A DNA stretch of 64,000 nt from a virus. A program made the translations under genes and the position numbers. A model generated the notes under the pieces. The model was not told the DNA's origin. It made no database searches and worked only from the letters and a program-made list of their open reading frames with translations. Positions 3,014 through 57,111 of the stretch are shown here, in pieces. Within the stretch, counting starts at the first letter, position 1; the number at the start of each line of letters is the position of its first letter. Location: IMG/VR virus record IMGVR_UViG_3300046507_000506, positions 1-64,000 of that record; one strand, 5' to 3'.

Positions 3014-4047
3014 TTTGCGTTCTTCATGATTTCGTTGAACTGCTCCTGCGTGATCGCACCAAGCGAGAGCAGGGAGCGGGCATTGCGCTCGATCTTACGC
3101 GCATTGGCTGACGGCTTTTCGGCTTTCGCCTTGGCTACGGCCACTTCCTTTGCAGAGGCGCGCGCGCGGCGTTTGGCGGCCTCCTCAGCCTTTTGCGCCG
3201 ACGTCTTGAGGTTCGTGCTCGACCGGCGTTTGCTCTGCTGCTCGGCGGCGTGCTTGCGAATGTCAGCCGCCTTGGTGCGTTCGGCCTTCAGCGCCTTGTC
3301 TTCGAGCGTATCGCGTTTCTTGATGACCTGATCCGCGATTTTGGCCTGCACCTTGGCATCCTTCAGGATGACGTGCATCACGCGCAATACGTGCTTGCAG
3401 GCACAGCCAACGAGCTTCGGATTTCGGATTTTCGGGAAACCCGTTTCCGCGCGGCCATAGTTGTACTTACCGATGGTCGCGATGTAGCGATACCAAAAGG
3501 TGTGACGGCCGCAATCGCAATCGAATTTGAGCCGCCCCTTTGCCACGGCTTTGCCGATTTTCTTCAGGTCGTTAGGCGATGCGCCCACGGCCGCATCGAA
3601 GTCCATGAATTCGACGTGCACATGGTGCCGCGAAACGTCCGAGTCCGGCCCGGCGTTCGTGATGAAGTGAAAGAGCGGGCCGCGCACCGACACCGGCACG
3701 GCCATGCGGATTTCACTGTTTGCGCGCTTCGTGTCCGCGTCTAGCGCCAGGTCGATCACGCCTTGCGCGGTGATGCCGCCGACAAACTTTTTCTTCAGCC
3801 GGGAGACATTGGACTGAAACGCGCGCAGGTCGCTCAGCGTGATCGGCCTGAGTTCGCCGCGCAACGACGTTTGCAGCAGGCGGCCGCCGTCATACTCGCC
3901 CGATACCTCATTGGGGTTGAGGATGGTTGCGGCGGCCTTGCGGCGGTCAAGATCGGCCCTCGAGTTTTGTTCGGCTTCCTTGCGTGCGGACGGCAGGCGC
4001 GCCGTCGCTCGGTCAATCAAGTGCTGAATAAGCGGCTGCTTCGGCAT
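3010..4047 (-). CDS. P1 gp25-like tail protein with SWIM-type CxC...CKH motif
   Basis: FDCDCGRHTFWYRYIATIG...GCACKHVLR motif. Confidence 0.65.
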   Translation of the reverse strand: MPKQPLIQHLIDRATARLPSARKEAEQNSRADLDRRKAAATILNPNEVSGEYDGGRLLQTSLRGELRPITLSDLRAFQSNVSRLKKKFVGGITAQGVIDLALDADTKRANSEIRMAVPVSVRGPLFHFITNAGPDSDVSRHHVHVEFMDFDAAVGASPNDLKKIGKAVAKGRLKFDCDCGRHTFWYRYIATIGKYNYGRAETGFPKIRNPKLVGCACKHVLRVMHVILKDAKVQAKIADQVIKKRDTLEDKALKAERTKAADIRKHAAEQQSKRRSSTNLKTSAQKAEEAAKRRARASAKEVAVAKAKAEKPSANARKIERNARSLLSLGAITQEQFNEIMKNAK

Positions 4048-4333
4048 CGGTCAGATAGTTGGTTTGACGCTTGATTAGCTGCAACTGGGTGAAGTTGGGC
4101 AGCACGAGCACCTGCTCAGGCAATACCTGTTCGAGCGTATCGAGCCCGGCCGCCGCAAAGATCACCATGAACTGTGAGCGGTCGCCATATGCCCGGTACG
4201 CCGCCAGCGTCAGGTCGCCGCGCTCATCGGGCAGCGTCTGATAGCGGATCGCGCTCGCCCAGTCGGGCGTCTGCGTCGCAAAGCGGCGCACCGCCCGCAC
4301 AAAGGCGGCCGTAGTAACGGGCGTGATGGCCAT
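4013..4333 (-). CDS. P1 gp26-like small baseplate protein (LysM/tail-X-like)
   Basis: YQTLPDERGDLTLAAYRAYG...VIFAAAGL pattern; synteny. Confidence 0.6.
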   Translation of the reverse strand: MAITPVTTAAFVRAVRRFATQTPDWASAIRYQTLPDERGDLTLAAYRAYGDRSQFMVIFAAAGLDTLEQVLPEQVLVLPNFTQLQLIKRQTNYLTDAEAAAYSALD

Positions 4334-5025
4334 TACGAGGCGTCCGTCGTGCCGGTGCTTGCGGCGGCCTGTGCTGCTGCCGCCTGCTCGGCAGCGGCCT
4401 GAGCGGCGGCCTCAGCCTTGGCGGCCTCGTCGGCTTCCACCTGCGTAGTGATCGCAGCCTCGTCGGGCAGCGGCGGCCAGTCGGTCGTCGCCGGGAAGTC
4501 CGGCGCATTGACGACCTTCACGAGACTCCATTGATAGGCGGCCCATGCCTTGAAAATGCCTTCCTCGACCGGGCTCAGCAGGCCCGCTGCCTGCGCATCG
4601 GCCTTGCCGTAGTTCTTCTGGCGCGCAGCGGCCATCAGCGTGTCAAATTCCGCCATTGCGGCGGCGCGCACCTTCGCGATCACGACAGCCTCATCAATCA
4701 CCCACCCGGTGCCGTCCTGCCATTTGTATTCATCGGAGGGCGGTGCGGTTTCGGTGAGCCCGACGTCGTTAGGTGCGATGCCCACCACGGTGATTTCAGT
4801 CGGCGCGCCCGTCGTCTTGCTGTAGAGCGTGATTGCGCGATAGTCGGGCTTGAGAATCCATGCGCCATTCACGAAGAAAGGCCAGGTATTGCGCGGCCGG
4901 TCGGGCATGGGCACGTCGGTGCTGAATGCTGGAATGAGCCAGCCTTTCGGGTTGGACGGGTCCGGGTCGGCGAGACGGCTGGAAATGTACTGGCCGGTGA
5001 TCGAATCGTACTGGTTGACTAGCAT
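4333..5025 (-). CDS. Tail fibre assembly chaperone
   Basis: Follows fibre gene; WLIPA...PDYR...WAAY...DWPPLP Tfa-type motifs. Confidence 0.8.
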   Translation of the reverse strand: MLVNQYDSITGQYISSRLADPDPSNPKGWLIPAFSTDVPMPDRPRNTWPFFVNGAWILKPDYRAITLYSKTTGAPTEITVVGIAPNDVGLTETAPPSDEYKWQDGTGWVIDEAVVIAKVRAAAMAEFDTLMAAARQKNYGKADAQAAGLLSPVEEGIFKAWAAYQWSLVKVVNAPDFPATTDWPPLPDEAAITTQVEADEAAKAEAAAQAAAEQAAAAQAAASTGTTDAS

Positions 5026-32468: not shown

Positions 32469-33079
32469 TACTGAATCCCAAGGAGCTTGATTTCCACATC
32501 CAGCGTCATTGGGTTGGCATCAATGTTCGTGACGAGCACAAACAGATTGCCGGACGCAAGCGGCGGAATGAAAAAGGAGGCGTTGTCGATAAAGGCCGGA
32601 TCGGTGATCCCGCTCGACCGGTAGAGCAGCGCACCGGCCGCGCTGCCGTCATAAAACTCCAGTTCGTAGTTCTGGTTGCCGACGGTCTGATTGGTCGCCT
32701 TCACCTGCAACACGAACGAACCGAACGCCGTGCCCACGGCGAGCGTTGCATTGGCTGTTGCGCCAACGGCGGCAGCAACCGCGATAGACGGCGGCGCGAG
32801 CGTGCGCGATGCCACGCCCTCCGTTGCGGTCGAGGCCGCAAGTTGGGCGGCGGCGGCACTGTCAGAAGCCTGTTGCGCGCTTGTCGATGCGTGGCCCTCC
32901 GACGTGGATGCAGCTTGGGCGGCAGCTTCGGCGGCGGCAGCAGAGGCAGCGGCATCGCCGATCTGACCCAACGCCGTCGTCGCGGTCTGCGCAGCGTCCG
33001 TCGCCTGCGCGACAAGCGCTTTCATCGTCTTGGAAATGCCCGTAAGCTGCCAGAGCTTTATCCACTCGCCATAGTTCAT
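32468..33079 (-). CDS. Putative tailspike adaptor protein (Ala-rich coil plus beta domain)
   Basis: MNYGEWIKLWQLTGISKTMKALVAQA N-terminus shared with 28678-29100. Confidence 0.65.
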   Translation of the reverse strand: MNYGEWIKLWQLTGISKTMKALVAQATDAAQTATTALGQIGDAAASAAAAEAAAQAASTSEGHASTSAQQASDSAAAAQLAASTATEGVASRTLAPPSIAVAAAVGATANATLAVGTAFGSFVLQVKATNQTVGNQNYELEFYDGSAAGALLYRSSGITDPAFIDNASFFIPPLASGNLFVLVTNIDANPMTLDVEIKLLGIQ

Positions 33080-33270
33080 TGCTTCACCCAGGCGCTTTCG
33101 CTGGTCATGCCCATCGCGGTGAAGGTGTAGGTCTTCTTGAACTTCGTCACGCCGTCCGGTGCCGTGACGGTGTCGCTGTCCATCTGCCCGTCAGGACCGT
33201 TGTACGTGTAGTCGTGCTTGCACAGTTCCGTGTCGATAAACCCGGCTGTCGCGTCATAGATAATTGCCAC
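33076..33270 (-). CDS. Small virion-associated protein
   Basis: First gene after late promoter; ATGA overlap. Confidence 0.6.
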   Translation of the reverse strand: MAIIYDATAGFIDTELCKHDYTYNGPDGQMDSDTVTAPDGVTKFKKTYTFTAMGMTSESAWVKQ

Positions 33271-33298
33271 GGAATGCCCCTATAGATACCGTGCGTCG

Positions 33299-33339
33299 AT
33301 TATCAGAGGGCAAGGCGGCGCGGGCGGGCGTGCTTTTCC
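33299..33339 (-). promoter_or_regulatory. Late promoter motif GGAAAA-N29-GATAAT
   Basis: Fixed spacing. Confidence 0.7.
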
Positions 33340-33346
33340 GAGGAGC

Positions 33347-33532
33347 TTATTCGAGCGCGGTTTTCACGAGCACCGCGAGGCGTAGATACTCGCCTACCCA
33401 CTTCGGGAACCTCTGCGCGCCCATCCATCGCGAAACGGTCGTCGGATCGACGCCGAGGCGGCGCGCGAACTCTGCTTGCGTCCATCCAAGCGTGGCGAGA
33501 GAATGGGAAAAGTCGGCTGTTTTCATAGCCAT
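33347..33532 (-). CDS. Small XRE-family HTH protein
   Basis: LGWTQAEFARRLGVDPTTVSRW. Confidence 0.8.
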   Translation of the reverse strand: MAMKTADFSHSLATLGWTQAEFARRLGVDPTTVSRWMGAQRFPKWVGEYLRLAVLVKTALE

Positions 33533-33595
33533 GATCTTAGCAAAATGCAGAGCTTTGCGCGGGTCAGTATCTGCATTTTGCAGATTGGAGGGTTT

Positions 33596-33844
33596 ATGGA
33601 CTTACCGCAAGCTGATGGCGCTGACCCGGCCACCGTTTTCACGGCCGCACTTGCCGCCCTGTTCAGCACACACCCCGATCCTGCGGCCCTCCTGAAGGCT
33701 TGGGAGCCCGTCGCCACGTCCATCCCCCTGATGATGCTGAAGAACGGCGCTACGGACGTGCACGCGAATGCAAACGTGGTGATCGCGCAGGCACTGCTCC
33801 ATATCGCGCGAGTGAATGCAGGCGCGCCGCCACCTGTTGACTAG
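33596..33844 (+). CDS. Hypothetical protein (start MDLPQ)
   Basis: GGAGG RBS. Confidence 0.6.
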   Translation: MDLPQADGADPATVFTAALAALFSTHPDPAALLKAWEPVATSIPLMMLKNGATDVHANANVVIAQALLHIARVNAGAPPPVD

Positions 33845-33865
33845 GAAACCCGCGCTTCATACACT
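33837..33865 (+). promoter_or_regulatory. Sigma70 promoter TTGACT-17-TACACT driving the RNA array
   Basis: Predicted +1 (~33872) coincides with first base of first stem. Confidence 0.7.
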
Positions 33866-33871
33866 GGCGAC

Positions 33872-34648
33872 GCTTTCACACATGGCGGCTTGGTGCAGTA
33901 AGAGCCTGCCCCGCCAGTGCCAGCCGGTCGCGCGAGCGACGTATGCGGATAGCCGCCATTGTGAAAGCCGCTCCCATGCGGTCCAGTTAGCAAGTCGCCT
34001 TGTGCCGCTTGTCCGCATCGCTGCAATGGGAGCACCTTCAGCACGGCCGTAGCTCAGTTGGTAGAGCGCCCCTCGTATGGGGAGAGAAGTAGTCGCGAAA
34101 TGGCGGTAGCGCCCGCGCGACGATCTTCCGGTATCGGCCGGTACGCGCGCGGGTTCGAATCCCGTCGGCCGTGCTGAGGGTGAATGGTGGACGTGAAACT
34201 ATGTCCCTTACTTTGCATGCACTGACCTGCCTCTGACTGTACTGCGAATCAGACCGAGTCATCATTCACTCTCAACAGATGCGGAACCGTGGGCGGCGGT
34301 GAGTCAGTAGGGAAAGCGTCGATTGAACGATGTAGCGTTCGGCGCGGAGCCCGAAAGCAATAGACCGTGCGAGTGGTCGAGCATGCCGTTAAAGCGCAAG
34401 GTTCTGGCGCATGAGCAGGGGAAGGGCCTGCACTCTCACGCATGGCGATCGGTGGAGTACCGTTCAAGAAATCGTCAGTTCCGTGCGCTTGCGGAACCAG
34501 TCGCCATGACGTGAGAGTGATCGGATAGTGGAAAGCGCAGGCGTCACAGCCGTCTAGCAGGGTTCGATACCGTGCCCTTTCACTCTCAACGCGCGGCCTG
34601 TAAGGGTTGTACCGGCCAGCCAGTGACCCCTTAAAAGGTCCGCCGCGC
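33872..34648 (+). ncRNA. Polycistronic array of ~8 stem-closed structured RNAs
   Basis: Units 33872-33968, 33970-34033, 34035-34180, 34180-34269, 34279-34412, 34431-34519, 34512-34588, 34591-34648, each closed by ~9-18 bp stems; no credible ORF. Confidence 0.75.
34043..34173 (+). tRNA. Non-canonical tRNA-like element (Thr-CGT-like loop, 66-nt extra region, no encoded CCA)
   Basis: Acceptor ACGGCCG/CGGCCGT, D-arm GCTC-AGTTGGTA-GAGC, T-arm GCGGG-TTCGAAT-CCCGT. Confidence 0.7.
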
Positions 34649-34672
34649 ACCCTTCCCCCTCACACCACCACC

Positions 34673-35155
34673 ATGACATTTCCCTTCCGCGATACCGAAG
34701 CGGCGCTAATGGCCGCCGAAATTCGAGAGCAGATTTACGAGGATTTCCGTTCGGTTGTGGGCACGAATGAGCCCAAGCCTTATACACCGCCCGCGCCGAT
34801 GCCGACATACGAGGAAATGACCGAGCAGTTGCATCGCGCGGCGAATCCCACGCCTGCCGACGTGGCGGCGCGCATGCTCAACCAGCAAGCGCAATCCGGT
34901 GCACCGCCTTGGTCTTGGGAATGGGTGATGGGCGAACCGCTATGGCTCGAAATGCGCCGGGCAATGAAGCGCGTGAAGCGTGAAGCGCCCGCGTATGCGC
35001 CGCTGCCGGAAAGCGTCACCAAGCCGGAAGTGCTCGACCTGGTAGACCTGCGCGACGCTGGCTATGAGTTGTTGGACGTGACAGCCGACGGCGTTGTTAC
35101 GCTGCGCTCGCCCCATACCGTGCGAGCCGTCTACATGACTGCGACCATTCGCTAG
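34673..35155 (+). CDS. Hypothetical protein co-transcribed with the RNA array
   Basis: Only ORF between array and terminator; no clear SD. Confidence 0.55.
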   Translation: MTFPFRDTEAALMAAEIREQIYEDFRSVVGTNEPKPYTPPAPMPTYEEMTEQLHRAANPTPADVAARMLNQQAQSGAPPWSWEWVMGEPLWLEMRRAMKRVKREAPAYAPLPESVTKPEVLDLVDLRDAGYELLDVTADGVVTLRSPHTVRAVYMTATIR

Positions 35156-35174
35156 TGATCGCGCCAAGCCAACG

Positions 35175-35204
35175 AAAAGGCCCGGCATTGCGTCCGGGCC
35201 TTTT
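35175..35204. terminator. Bidirectional intrinsic terminator
   Basis: AAAAGGCCCGG...CCGGGCCTTTT between convergent genes. Confidence 0.85.
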
Positions 35205-35213
35205 CACATTCCG

Positions 35214-35612
35214 CTAGATCGGGTGATTCTTTACGAGGTATTCGCTCGCCTCGTCTACCGTATCAAACTCAGCGAGCACAACGTAATCCTCATCCGGGCG
35301 TTGCGGCATTCGCGCCAGCTTGACCTTGGGCACGTCCATGATGATGGTCGGACGCTGGCGACCGCGCAGATAGTCCGCCTGCAACGCCTCTGCCAGTATG
35401 CAAGCCTCATCATAGGTATCGACCATGCCGAGGTATGTGGGCCGGTCCCACGCGCCGCCGTTCAGGCATCGGACCTCGATCTTTCCATCGTCTCGCGTTA
35501 CGCCGTAAGGATGATCCCACCAGGCATCAAGCTCGGCTTTGCTGCGCTCCTCATTGGGCGTGGCGTCGAACATTTCCGGCAGGTCTGGATCAAGGGGAAT
35601 GCGGTTGGGCAT
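35214..35612 (-). CDS. Hypothetical protein
   Basis: AAGGAG RBS; VRCLNGGAWDRPT motif. Confidence 0.75.
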   Translation of the reverse strand: MPNRIPLDPDLPEMFDATPNEERSKAELDAWWDHPYGVTRDDGKIEVRCLNGGAWDRPTYLGMVDTYDEACILAEALQADYLRGRQRPTIIMDVPKVKLARMPQRPDEDYVVLAEFDTVDEASEYLVKNHPI

Positions 35613-35654
35613 GGCGGCTCCTTTTGTGGTGTCCCGCCATTGTGCCGCAACCGC

Positions 35655-36008
35655 TCACCTTCTACCTATACCGCGCATCTGCTTGCGCTTGCGACGGTCC
35701 TGATTCACGCGGGCATTGAACAGCGCCCGCGCCTGCTTTTCACGCCACACGTTCTCGCGTCGCAGCCGCGCCGTCTCGCGCCGGTAGCTGTCGTCATAGA
35801 CCGGCTCGCACTCCTGCTCGAATCGCGCCGGGTAGCGCGTGCGCACGAGGGCGTCGAGGTCAAGCGCGGGCGGCTCGTCTTTGGGCAGGAGCACGCGCGC
35901 GCCGCAATCCTGCACGATGACGTTCGCCACCTCATGCGCGAGCGCAAGGGCCAGCGCACGGCCAGCCGCGCCGCCCGTAAAGATGATGACGCCGCAGCCC
36001 CTGCTCAC
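35655..36008 (-). CDS. Hypothetical protein
   Basis: GTGA coupling. Confidence 0.55.
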   Translation of the reverse strand: MSRGCGVIIFTGGAAGRALALALAHEVANVIVQDCGARVLLPKDEPPALDLDALVRTRYPARFEQECEPVYDDSYRRETARLRRENVWREKQARALFNARVNQDRRKRKQMRGIGRR

Positions 36009-56451: not shown

Positions 56452-57111
56452 ATGTCTATTACTGTCGTAGCTCACACGAAGGGAGGCGTGAGCAAAACAA
56501 CGACCGCCGTCAACCTCGCCGTCATGCTCATGTCGGCCGGGCGCGACGTTCTCCTCGTGGACAGCGACACCGGGCAATCAGCCCGACGCTTCGCCAGCAA
56601 GCGCGCGAAAGCGCCCGGCCTGCCGTTTGTCGAGTGCGTTGCGCTGTTCGATAACGAGGGTGACTATCACCGCCAACTCGCCGCGCTCGCCGCTCGCCAT
56701 GATGAGGTCATTGTGGACGTTGGCGGGGAAGGGCAGGGCGCGCGTGAAATCCGCCTTGCCCTCACCGTCGCCAATCGCGTCCTGACGCCGTGTCGCCCGT
56801 CGCCCGCTGACATTCAGCGACTGGACATGATGCACGGCATGATCGAACTGGCACGCGACCTGAATCCGGGCCTCGACGCAATGCTTTTCCCGGTTCAGGC
56901 GTCAACGAACGCCAAAGCCACGGACGTAGACGTTTTCTATGAGAAAGCCGTCGAATTTCCACAGTTTCGCCTGCTCGATGCCGTCGTGTGCATGCGCGAT
57001 GCCTACAAGCCGTGGGCTGACACCGGCGAGGCGGTTTTCGAGCAGGTCAAGCTGGATAAAAAGGCGATGGCCGAAATGACCAAACTCTACAAAGAGGTAT
57101 TCAATGGCTGA
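56452..57111 (+). CDS. parA: ParA Walker ATPase (short, type Ib)
   Basis: TKGGVSKTT, VDSD, VIVDVGG. Confidence 0.92.
   Translation: MSITVVAHTKGGVSKTTTAVNLAVMLMSAGRDVLLVDSDTGQSARRFASKRAKAPGLPFVECVALFDNEGDYHRQLAALAARHDEVIVDVGGEGQGAREIRLALTVANRVLTPCRPSPADIQRLDMMHGMIELARDLNPGLDAMLFPVQASTNAKATDVDVFYEKAVEFPQFRLLDAVVCMRDAYKPWADTGEAVFEQVKLDKKAMAEMTKLYKEVFNG

Follow-up and report, generated by a model that had tools for sequence, protein, structure and literature searches.

The closest known counterparts of the locus described here lie in enterobacterial phages. In phage P1, according to the annotation of NC_005856, the C1-controlled promoter Pban is followed by a dicF-like region, tRNA-Asn, tRNA-Thr, tciABC, tRNA-Ile and ban. 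In lambdoid prophages, the leaders of the early-left (PL) operons, among them the dicBF operon of Qin, with its DicF RNA, and the leader of an mEp460-type prophage, with sRNA-17, are non-coding and modular, lying directly after a Cro/CI-type repressor pair and before the early genes. RNase III and RNase E free DicF from the dicBF transcript, and among the RNAs of the lambdoid leaders DicF is the only one with known processing enzymes. Long gene-free blocks of structured RNA stand behind early promoters in temperate phages of very different hosts, and few functions are known for them beyond those of DicF and one E. coli sRNA.

The window considered here is a 64-kb stretch of a virus record, and the locus it contains belongs with the early-operon RNA leaders of P1 and the lambdoid prophages. 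The original prediction had looked for comparators elsewhere, in the c4/CI antisense RNAs and in GOLLD and ROOL, which share with the locus that they are phage-encoded, structured, and either processed or associated with tRNAs. They are not the nearest; Pban of P1 and the early-left leaders are closer. The ban operon resembles the array in that a single early promoter drives a long run of small RNAs and tRNAs before any protein is encoded, in a phage genome some 94 kb long. It differs in that its tRNAs are canonical and decoding, and P1 itself lacks the tRNA-derived module called M3 below (best score, 16 bits). A P1-like plasmid of E. coli CH468 and Cronobacter phage JK004 do have a true M3 homologue, within RNA-rich gaps. 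Enterobacterial early-left leaders hold M3 homologues as well (52-74 bits), together with stem-closed modules built on three-way junctions, and the similarity in sequence between lambdoid leaders and the window is confined to M3. One of the loci compared (L005, 8334-8479) shares 81% identity with the mEp460 leader, and a stable sRNA of 193 nt, sRNA-17, has been verified by Northern blot and RACE in an mEp460-type prophage (PMC7719688).

Promoter, modules and strand

The array lies behind a sigma-70-type promoter on the + strand (33837-33865), consisting of TTGACT, a 17-nt spacer, and TACACT, from which transcription would start at about 33871-33872. This site, already named in the original prediction, is the only sigma-70-like one that a promoter scan finds in 33000-36000. 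The preceding ORF (33476-33844) ends in a stop codon that overlaps the -35 element. A -10 element of the form TAnACT, five bases, and then the same beginning of the first helix are found also at three homologous arrays (L009, L001, and L007). From the predicted start, eight stem-closed modules on the + strand (M1 to M8) cover 33872-34648, as had been claimed, followed by an ORF of 160 codons and a terminator-like hairpin, so that the layout is promoter, several non-coding RNA units, and first protein gene. The hairpin, read from the sequence at 35174-35207, is a 7-bp GC hairpin with an A run and a U run at its flanks, appropriate to termination in both directions. The claim of a bidirectional terminator survives in part: the hairpin is there (35179-35200), with tails of four U in either direction, and these fall under the five-U threshold of the scan. 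Within the window's array the terminator scan finds no U-tailed terminator.

Whereas a repressor gene adjoins the promoter at L001, at L007, and at the enterobacterial loci, the window's promoter has no such neighbor; at L001 and L007 there is a small divergent HTH gene. No repressor operator was identified near the window's promoter. The genes upstream of the locus are tail-fibre-like and those downstream encode proteins without an assigned function, so the neighborhood offers no functional context.

It had been predicted that the array would fold better than shuffled controls and that the + strand would be favored, and both are so. The 789 nt of 33872-34660 fold on the + strand with an energy of -349 kcal/mol (z -5.68), equaled by none of 20 shuffles, while the - strand of the same stretch gives a z-score of -3.35. 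A covariance model of M3 (R1) gives 147 bits on the + strand versus 26 on the - strand. Judged by z-score, six of the eight modules are clearly beyond their shuffles. The predicted list of modules stands to that extent and needs correction in one place, where the claimed closing stem of a unit at 34279-34412 is not clearly beyond its shuffles (z -0.27); the region corresponds to a conserved RNA, M5, whose borders are slightly different. These results support a non-coding array of independently folding RNA modules on the + strand, predicted to be driven by the promoter.

The array is real, and it includes RNA families absent from Rfam. An Rfam scan of the window, run both at gathering thresholds and with E up to 10, has tRNA as the only family that passes, which bears out the prediction that nothing catalogued would match, tRNA excepted; the related loci give the same result. 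Neither c4 nor any other known sRNA family turns up in the Rfam scan of the window. DicF (RF00039) has no match there at E up to 10; in the enterobacterial relatives there are DicF-like matches of 16.6-33 bits, below the gathering score of 48, downstream of the M3 relatives. The antisense role suggested earlier finds no backing within the phage genome: the best match in its 93.6 kb scores 29.5 bits, and controls score 27.6-35.3. The c4 or P4 CI antisense type was accordingly rejected, having neither an Rfam match nor an above-chance target in the phage genome. The idea of an RNase P RNA, prompted by a short motif in M1, was also set aside. The RF00010 model does not match the virus record at E up to 10 (a host-type genome gives 280 bits), and the local match of M1 to a host rnpB, 13 of 14 positions, is at the level of control pieces.

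M3 and the other modules

M3 (34034-34182, + strand; z -4.68) is a tRNA-derived scaffold that keeps the stack of acceptor stem and T arm and the elbow between D-loop and T-loop, with no usable anticodon arm. Its tRNA-like core (34043-34173) has a 7-bp acceptor stem and intact D and T arms and passes the Rfam threshold for tRNA (RF00005; 43.7 bits, gathering score 29), its homologues scoring 39.9-43.9 bits. GG is present in the D-loop and a UUCRANY-type sequence in the T-loop (motif at 34152-34162), and both arms are invariant or covarying over 14 sequences. The anticodon arm has been replaced by three hairpins: H1, which is short, H2, which is long, and H3, which resembles a variable arm. Instead of the 5-bp stem and U33-bearing 7-nt loop that decoding calls for, there is a 4-bp hairpin with a 6-nt loop and then an insertion of 60 nt, forming two further helices. 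The homologues carry different short hairpins at this position, from one to three of them. The ends also differ from those of an ordinary tRNA. There is no encoded CCA, and the flanks, instead of being single-stranded, form a 9-bp leader-trailer helix that lengthens the acceptor stem and closes the module. ARAGORN rejects M3, finding neither tRNA nor tmRNA in the window.

In the family of 14 sequences, 92.8% of the cells are paired, and compensatory changes occur in 32 of the 43 pairs, a result reached in none of 500 shuffles; the leader-trailer helix covaries in 14 of its 16 pairs. M3 has relatives in plasmid pBVIE05, among Burkholderiaceae genomes, and in phages of enterobacteria, which makes the scaffold common to phages of beta- and gammaproteobacteria. 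One of them is annotated (PGAP, NCBI) as a 129-nt "tRNA-Met", an instance of how genome pipelines either overlook this type of RNA or mislabel it as an oversized tRNA. A pattern search of contigs returned no match to an exact 24-mer and, with a looser pattern, two true homologues among chance matches. Literature searches on tRNA-like RNA in phage-plasmids, on DicF with tRNA-like RNA, and on pBVIE05 turned up nothing specific.

Non-decoding RNAs in the shape of tRNA that lie within longer transcripts have been described elsewhere, as mascRNA at the 3' end of MALAT1 and as YrlA. In MALAT1, the interaction of leader and trailer reportedly matters in processing. The similarity has limits: mascRNA belongs to another kingdom, and its model (RF01684) makes only a partial match in the window (19.9 bits, threshold 42.5). 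In YrlA the two ends pair into a Ro-binding stem, and nothing of the sort is seen in M3. The YrlA model (RF02553), which matched the P1 tRNAs weakly, does not match the window at E up to 10.

Of the remaining modules, two are conserved in the same sense as M3. M1 (33872-33968, + strand; z -3.58) is closed by an 18-bp stem and contains two hairpins, one with a 7-nt loop and one capped by a GNRA loop within a helix of 4-5 bp. The GNRA-capped hairpin had been predicted, and GNRA loops are kept in the homologues, which come from phage Mana and three Burkholderiaceae genomes. Their alignment has 91% of cells paired, with compensatory changes in 9 of 31 pairs, against 33-45% in slid controls. M5 (about 34262-34432, + strand) is a multi-helix RNA with long invariant single-stranded blocks, recognized by its homologues in L009, L021, and L028 and by covariation: 95% of cells paired and compensatory changes in 10 of 36 pairs, with slid controls at 27-44%. 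Both were found only in Burkholderia-type sequences and have no features of tRNA. The check for covariation among homologues thus came out positive in three modules, and M1, M3, and M5 are conserved RNA families with compensatory changes, none of them in Rfam. They can now enter annotation libraries.

The other five are known from fewer copies or from the window itself. M6 (34431-34519, + strand; z -5.82) is a three-way junction with two hairpins, closed by a 22-bp stem with one bulge, and L029 has a copy 81% identical to it. M7 (34508-34590, + strand; z -3.23) contains a T-arm-like hairpin, with its T-loop motif at 34561-34571, behind a closing stem of 8-9 bp that reuses the 3' strand of M6. 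A copy 97.6% identical is present in L007 and only there, and neither Rfam tRNA nor model R1 matches M7. No homologue was found of M2, a stem-closed hairpin of 64 nt (33970-34033, + strand; z -3.55), of the interior of M4, which may be a linker (34175-34274, + strand; z -2.94), or of M8, the last hairpin before the ORF (34591-34648, + strand; z -1.83, which is weak), so the case for these three is one of folding energy.

A helix of 16-22 bp closes each module, most often through a pair of sequences of ACUCUCA type and UGAGRGU type. The shared closing motif that had been noticed is well beyond chance: UGAGRGUGAW (TGAGRGTGAW in the DNA), the motif of the 3' side, occurs five times in the 64-kb window, where 0.27 occurrences are expected, and four of the five are in the array. 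The stem sequence conserved in M6 encloses other interiors in L001, L009, L021, and L031. M1 stands apart from the window's other modules both in phage Mana and close to a chromosomal tRNA, while M3 and M5 occur together in L009, L021, and L028. The modules behave, then, as interchangeable cassettes that share a closing stem, and they have recombined between phages.

Possible roles of the array

I propose, with moderate confidence, that a temperate Burkholderia-type phage has here a stand-alone operon of non-coding RNA, whose chain of modules is cut by the host into small RNAs that act in trans. Transcription, cleavage, and action in trans I infer as follows. One sigma-70 promoter would give rise to a transcript of about 1.3 kb, the first 0.8 kb of which would be the chain of folding modules. 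Host enzymes would then break the chain up into individual stable small RNAs, with RNase III cleaving inside the long closing helices and RNase P and a 3' tRNA-processing nuclease at M3. (The tRNAs of phage T4 that lack CCA require host RNase BN.) The released RNAs might act on the host, by analogy to DicF and sRNA-17 in enterobacterial prophages. A base-paired leader and trailer make an atypical substrate for RNase P, which counts against this processing scheme. Since the leader-trailer helix covaries, however, the mature M3 RNA may keep it.

An alternative view is that the array acts in cis, as a leader or switch whose mutually exclusive helices would regulate either read-through into the downstream sequence or its translation. 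Such helices can certainly be drawn. The 3' strand of M3's closing stem makes 10 contiguous pairs with its upstream partner and, alternatively, 10 with a downstream CACUCUCAAC-type element in M4, and over six loci all 11 of the canonical UGAGRGU-type 3' strands can pair either way, through 8-12 contiguous pairs with a partner upstream and 7-10 with one downstream. The alternatives arise automatically, however, because neighboring modules share one closing-stem sequence. The ORF at 34673-35155 (+ strand) would suit a switch in that it follows directly on the last hairpin with no Shine-Dalgarno-like sequence upstream, and at L007 a terminator-like hairpin stands between the array and a homologue of the ORF. 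The ORF is real, as had been supposed, and this homologue, 125 aa long and 43% identical, is its only relative. It is otherwise an orphan: it belongs to no Pfam, PHROG, or PADLOC family, has no relative but itself among 5.8 billion proteins, and its Atlas model is of low confidence and lacks a usable neighbor. The suggestion that the protein is the RNAs' partner is not supported, in that only one related array is followed by the ORF. The gene downstream varies between arrays or is absent, as in L021, whose array runs into an intrinsic terminator that no ORF follows, and the window's own array has no internal U-tailed terminator. I consider control in cis unlikely.

Slightly less likely in my estimation is that the RNAs serve in counter-defense, M3 and the T-loop modules being decoys or sponges for host factors that recognize the tRNA elbow and acceptor stem, for example defense toxins that cleave or modify tRNA. 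It is true that evolution has conserved the elbow and acceptor of M3 while freely swapping the anticodon region, that T-arm-like hairpins recur in other modules, and that the M3 homologue in CH468 lies about 0.8 kb from a Thoeris anti-defense gene. Against this, the locus has no link to a defense system or a toxin, M1 and M5 do not look like tRNA, and the evidence is purely contextual, the sole anti-defense neighbor being in one distant relative. The idea can be taken further. Perhaps the array is a toolkit of tRNA-elbow mimics and companion RNAs, whose repeated A-B-A' helices are switches triggered by processing. If so, then host machinery that recognizes tRNA (defense nucleases, RNase P, tRNA-modifying enzymes) would be titrated or misdirected, and the active forms of the RNAs would be released after infection or induction. 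I offer this as a speculation, a little more improbable than the decoys themselves.

It is too much to expect that the modules are domains of one folded particle, a single large ornate RNA of the GOLLD/ROOL type, as the original prediction allowed. The array has much of the look of one: some 780 nt in a phage, beside a tRNA-like sequence, densely folded, and with some long-range pairings in its minimum-free-energy fold. But GOLLD and ROOL have no match in the window even at E 10, and all helices supported by covariation are local to their own modules. Above all, the modules are not inherited together, occurring singly and in other combinations and orders in related loci. Their free recombination, together with the lack of conservation in the downstream gene, argues against both the ornate RNA and the protein partner, and I regard the former as very improbable. 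The same low standing belongs to the notion that the locus is functionless debris, a decaying cluster of tRNA genes or the remains of an integration site. M3 does score as a tRNA, M7 has merely a T-arm-like piece, and tRNA genes and att sequences derived from tRNA are common in phages, but compensatory changes keep helices foreign to tRNA (H1-H3 and the leader-trailer stem) in phages of beta- and gammaproteobacteria, and M1 and M5, which are not tRNA-like, covary as well. Finally, a type III toxin-antitoxin system, with an RNA antitoxin array and a small toxin, is hardly credible: promoter, structured RNA, and 160-aa ORF come in the right order, and L007 has its terminator-like hairpin before the ORF homologue, but 33700-34672 contains no tandem repeat, and the ORF has no ToxN-like, PADLOC, or Pfam match and is missing from most related arrays.

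If the processed RNAs I favor are regulators directed at the host, or if they are decoys, they would represent a widespread and unexplored layer of the interaction between phage and host. The locus itself adds three covariation-supported families missing from Rfam. The genome that carries it is that of a Burkholderia-type phage. A megablast of 24 kb against phages gave no match. Of the sequencing runs listed for the sequence, a rhizosphere metagenome, perhaps its source, is the only one to contain it in full, and none is an RNA run. Its description as a phage-plasmid is plausible and no stronger than that: the 93.6-kb record encodes a ParA-like ATPase and has some similarity to plasmid pBVIE05, but has no match to the ParB_N domain. 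The plasmid brings the families within reach of experiment, since pBVIE05, with its own relative of M3, is carried by a strain that can be cultivated, B. vietnamiensis G4.

The plus-strand island and its promoter

The window covers the first 64 kb of a virus record totalling 93.6 kb, probably a rhizosphere-metagenome assembly, and within the window a plus-strand island is flanked by a minus-strand block of tail-fibre-like genes and by further minus-strand genes. The island begins with an ORF of unknown function (33476-33844), followed by a sigma-70-like promoter (33837-33865) that is the sole site in a promoter scan of 33000-36000, then by an RNA region of about 800 nt that shows no credible coding capacity, a 160-aa ORF (34673-35155), and, 3' of that ORF, a GC hairpin followed on either strand by a short U tail. 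Three homologous arrays share the TAnACT -10, a 5-nt spacer, and an identical start of the first helix, which supports a start near 33871-33872 and bears out the original prediction of a promoter at 33837 with +1 at about 33872. No regulator gene adjoins the array promoter in the window; in two related loci, L001 and the viral contig L007, the array promoter and a small HTH gene point away from each other. Elsewhere in the window, a 232-aa frame contains a match to a ParA-like ATPase (AAA_31, 42 bits; 56455-56577). ParB_N was not found in the virus record, and the match is consistent with plasmid-type maintenance but no proof of it.

The RNA region is best read as one polycistronic operon whose structured RNAs are independent of one another and exchangeable as cassettes, one of them being a tRNA mimic. 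What the analysis shows is the RNA architecture, its conservation, and its promoter. Over 789 nt, the plus strand folds better than shuffled controls, as had been anticipated (z -5.68, versus a weaker excess of -3.35 on the minus strand). Eight stem-closed modules had been drawn. Six are significantly stable when folded singly (z -2.9 to -5.8), but the stem placed at 34279-34412 lacks such stability (z -0.27) and M8, the final hairpin (34591-34648), is weak (z -1.8). The closing motif said to be shared by module ends occurs five times against 0.27 expected, four times within the array.

The covariation looked for among homologues is present, from small numbers of sequences, in three modules. 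In M1 (33872-33968; five sequences), 91% of cells are paired, with compensatory changes in 9 of 31 pairs and slid controls at 33-45%; the GNRA loops of its inner hairpin, part of the original prediction, are kept among homologues. In M5 (about 34262-34432; four sequences), the figures are 95%, 10 of 36, and 27-44%. For M3 (34034-34182), fourteen sequences aligned, and so fitted, to its covariance model R1 give 92.8% of cells paired and compensatory changes in 32 of 43 pairs, reached by no shuffle. Taken apart, the Burkholderia-type (n=5) and enterobacterial (n=6) groups have one architecture, with 9 and 8 compensatory pairs. R1 was built from Burkholderia sequences alone, and it picks up the enterobacterial copies at 52-74 bits. 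On the window it scores 147 bits on the plus strand versus 26 on the minus strand.

A module built on tRNA

M3 lies above the Rfam tRNA threshold because its 7-bp acceptor stem, D arm, and T arm are standard. The anticodon arm is replaced by three helices. The first is a short hairpin, a 14-nt element identical in nine copies and exchanged in others for different short hairpins with pairing kept. The second is a long bulged hairpin, tipped by a variable tetraloop in Burkholderia-type copies and by a 7-nt anticodon-like loop in enterobacterial ones (CAU-centred, hence Met-like, in 4/6). The third is a 5-bp hairpin resembling a variable arm. In Burkholderia-type copies a 9-bp leader-trailer helix, itself covarying, extends the acceptor stem. 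No CCA is encoded, and ARAGORN does not accept M3 as a tRNA. This anatomy argues that M3 is tRNA-derived, retaining the parts read by RNase P and other elbow-binding factors; judged by its sequence, it cannot be an ordinary decoding tRNA.

One member of the family is a 129-nt 'tRNA-Met' in the PGAP annotation of the P1-like plasmid unnamed5 of E. coli CH468 (L023, 3503-3631; 52.5 bits with R1), most likely an annotation artefact rather than a decoding tRNA. The P1-like Cronobacter phage JK004 has a copy too, which carries no annotation. In that phage a loxP-like inverted repeat (L024, about 3174-3207) separates a Cre-sized minus-strand gene from the array's promoter, so the array begins right beside a recombination site.

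Mosaic arrays and prophage leaders

No deposited phage or plasmid holds a close relative of the whole region, but such relatives exist for pieces of it. With a pattern taken from the tRNA-like unit, DNA searches, and a covariance model, related arrays turn up in plasmid pBVIE05 of B. vietnamiensis G4 (also entered in IMG/VR as a virus), Paraburkholderia sp. C35, several other Burkholderiaceae genomes, metagenome contigs, and L007. Compared all against all, they are mosaics. In phage Mana and in three Burkholderiaceae genomes M1 is found unaccompanied by the window's other modules; two of the genomic copies (L030, L032) are close to a chromosomal tRNA gene and the third (L031) is part of another RNA array. 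M3 and M5 occur together in three loci, M6 (34431-34519) recurs in two, M7 (34508-34590) in L007 only, and M2, M4, and M8 nowhere in that comparison. The L031 array (minus strand, about 1230-1680) is made up of a cassette bearing two T-arm-like hairpins, an M1 homologue interrupted by 25 extra nucleotides, and one more T-arm-like element. Since a terminase-small-subunit-like gene lies a short way downstream, arrays are not confined to immunity regions.

One closing stem, a conserved sequence of about 18 nt with its complement, encloses unrelated interiors in M1, M6, and units of L001, L007, L009, L021, L029, and L031. Strands of the UGAGRGU type have a second partner downstream, of the CACUCUCAAC type, and both partners are present in 11/11 canonical cases from six loci. 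The dual pairing could be a functional switch, or it could be a by-product of neighbouring cassettes having one stem sequence in common.

The enterobacterial M3 homologue lies in a non-coding leader that directly follows a Cro / CI-type repressor pair and precedes the early-left genes (DUF2303, RdgC), with sub-threshold DicF-like matches downstream. Of 5426 complete E. coli genomes, 2816, about half, carry a leader segment adjoining it (L005, 8321-8495); the M3 homologue beside the segment is in only one. By this distribution, the prophage leader is very common and M3 an insert that it may or may not carry. L005 8334-8479 and the corresponding gap in phage mEp460 are 81% identical. A prophage of that type encodes sRNA-17, 193 nt long and verified via Northern blot and RACE (PMC7719688). 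Phage P1, according to its GenBank record, follows the same principle: behind the C1-controlled Pban come a dicF-like region, a pair of tRNAs, small genes, one more tRNA, and finally ban. In the RNA block of CH468, a 72-nt module (L023, 3278-3349) is 85% identical to P1 (NC_005856, 3001-3072), where it falls inside the annotated minus-strand plp gene, and it occurs also in P7, D6, SJ46, RCS47, and Sasha-like phages. The Pban leader may include a structured plus-strand RNA at the place of the plp/upl ORFs.

Proposed processing and rejected identities

I propose, by analogy with dicBF, DicF, and sRNA-17 (on which expression, cleavage, and function all lean), that host RNase III would cut at the long closing stems, separating the RNAs, that tRNA-processing enzymes would cut at M3, and that the released RNAs would act in trans. 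The rival readings are a cis-acting switch, anti-defence decoys, one ornate RNA, and decaying tRNAs. RNA leaders of phage early operons that combine tRNA and sRNA units are a known kind of element; the M1, M3, and M5 families and the cassette organisation are uncatalogued.

It had also been suggested that the downstream protein might be a partner of the RNAs. That idea is not supported: the 160-aa ORF is an orphan, not kept with related arrays. A C-rich stretch precedes its start (34650-34675) and that of its only homologue (L007, 2920-2949), with no Shine-Dalgarno-like sequence ahead of either. Rejected as well were a type III toxin-antitoxin pair of array and ORF, an antisense regulator of the phage's own genes, and, for the array, the identities GOLLD, ROOL, c4, YrlA, DicF, and RNase P RNA. 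A conserved hairpin of M1 (33892-33905) agrees at 13 of 14 bases with a segment of host-type RNase P RNA (L034, rnpB 176-189) in the tRNA-elbow-docking part of the specificity domain. BLAST controls put this match at chance level; next to a tRNA mimic it is intriguing all the same.

Absent from the window is a small hairpin with an invariant GGCUGA hexaloop and compensatory stem changes, which follows a GUGAAU junction in several arrays (L001, about 4150-4175 and 4395-4420; L021, about 820-845; L037, about 1610-1630; L031). It may be another conserved mini-module.
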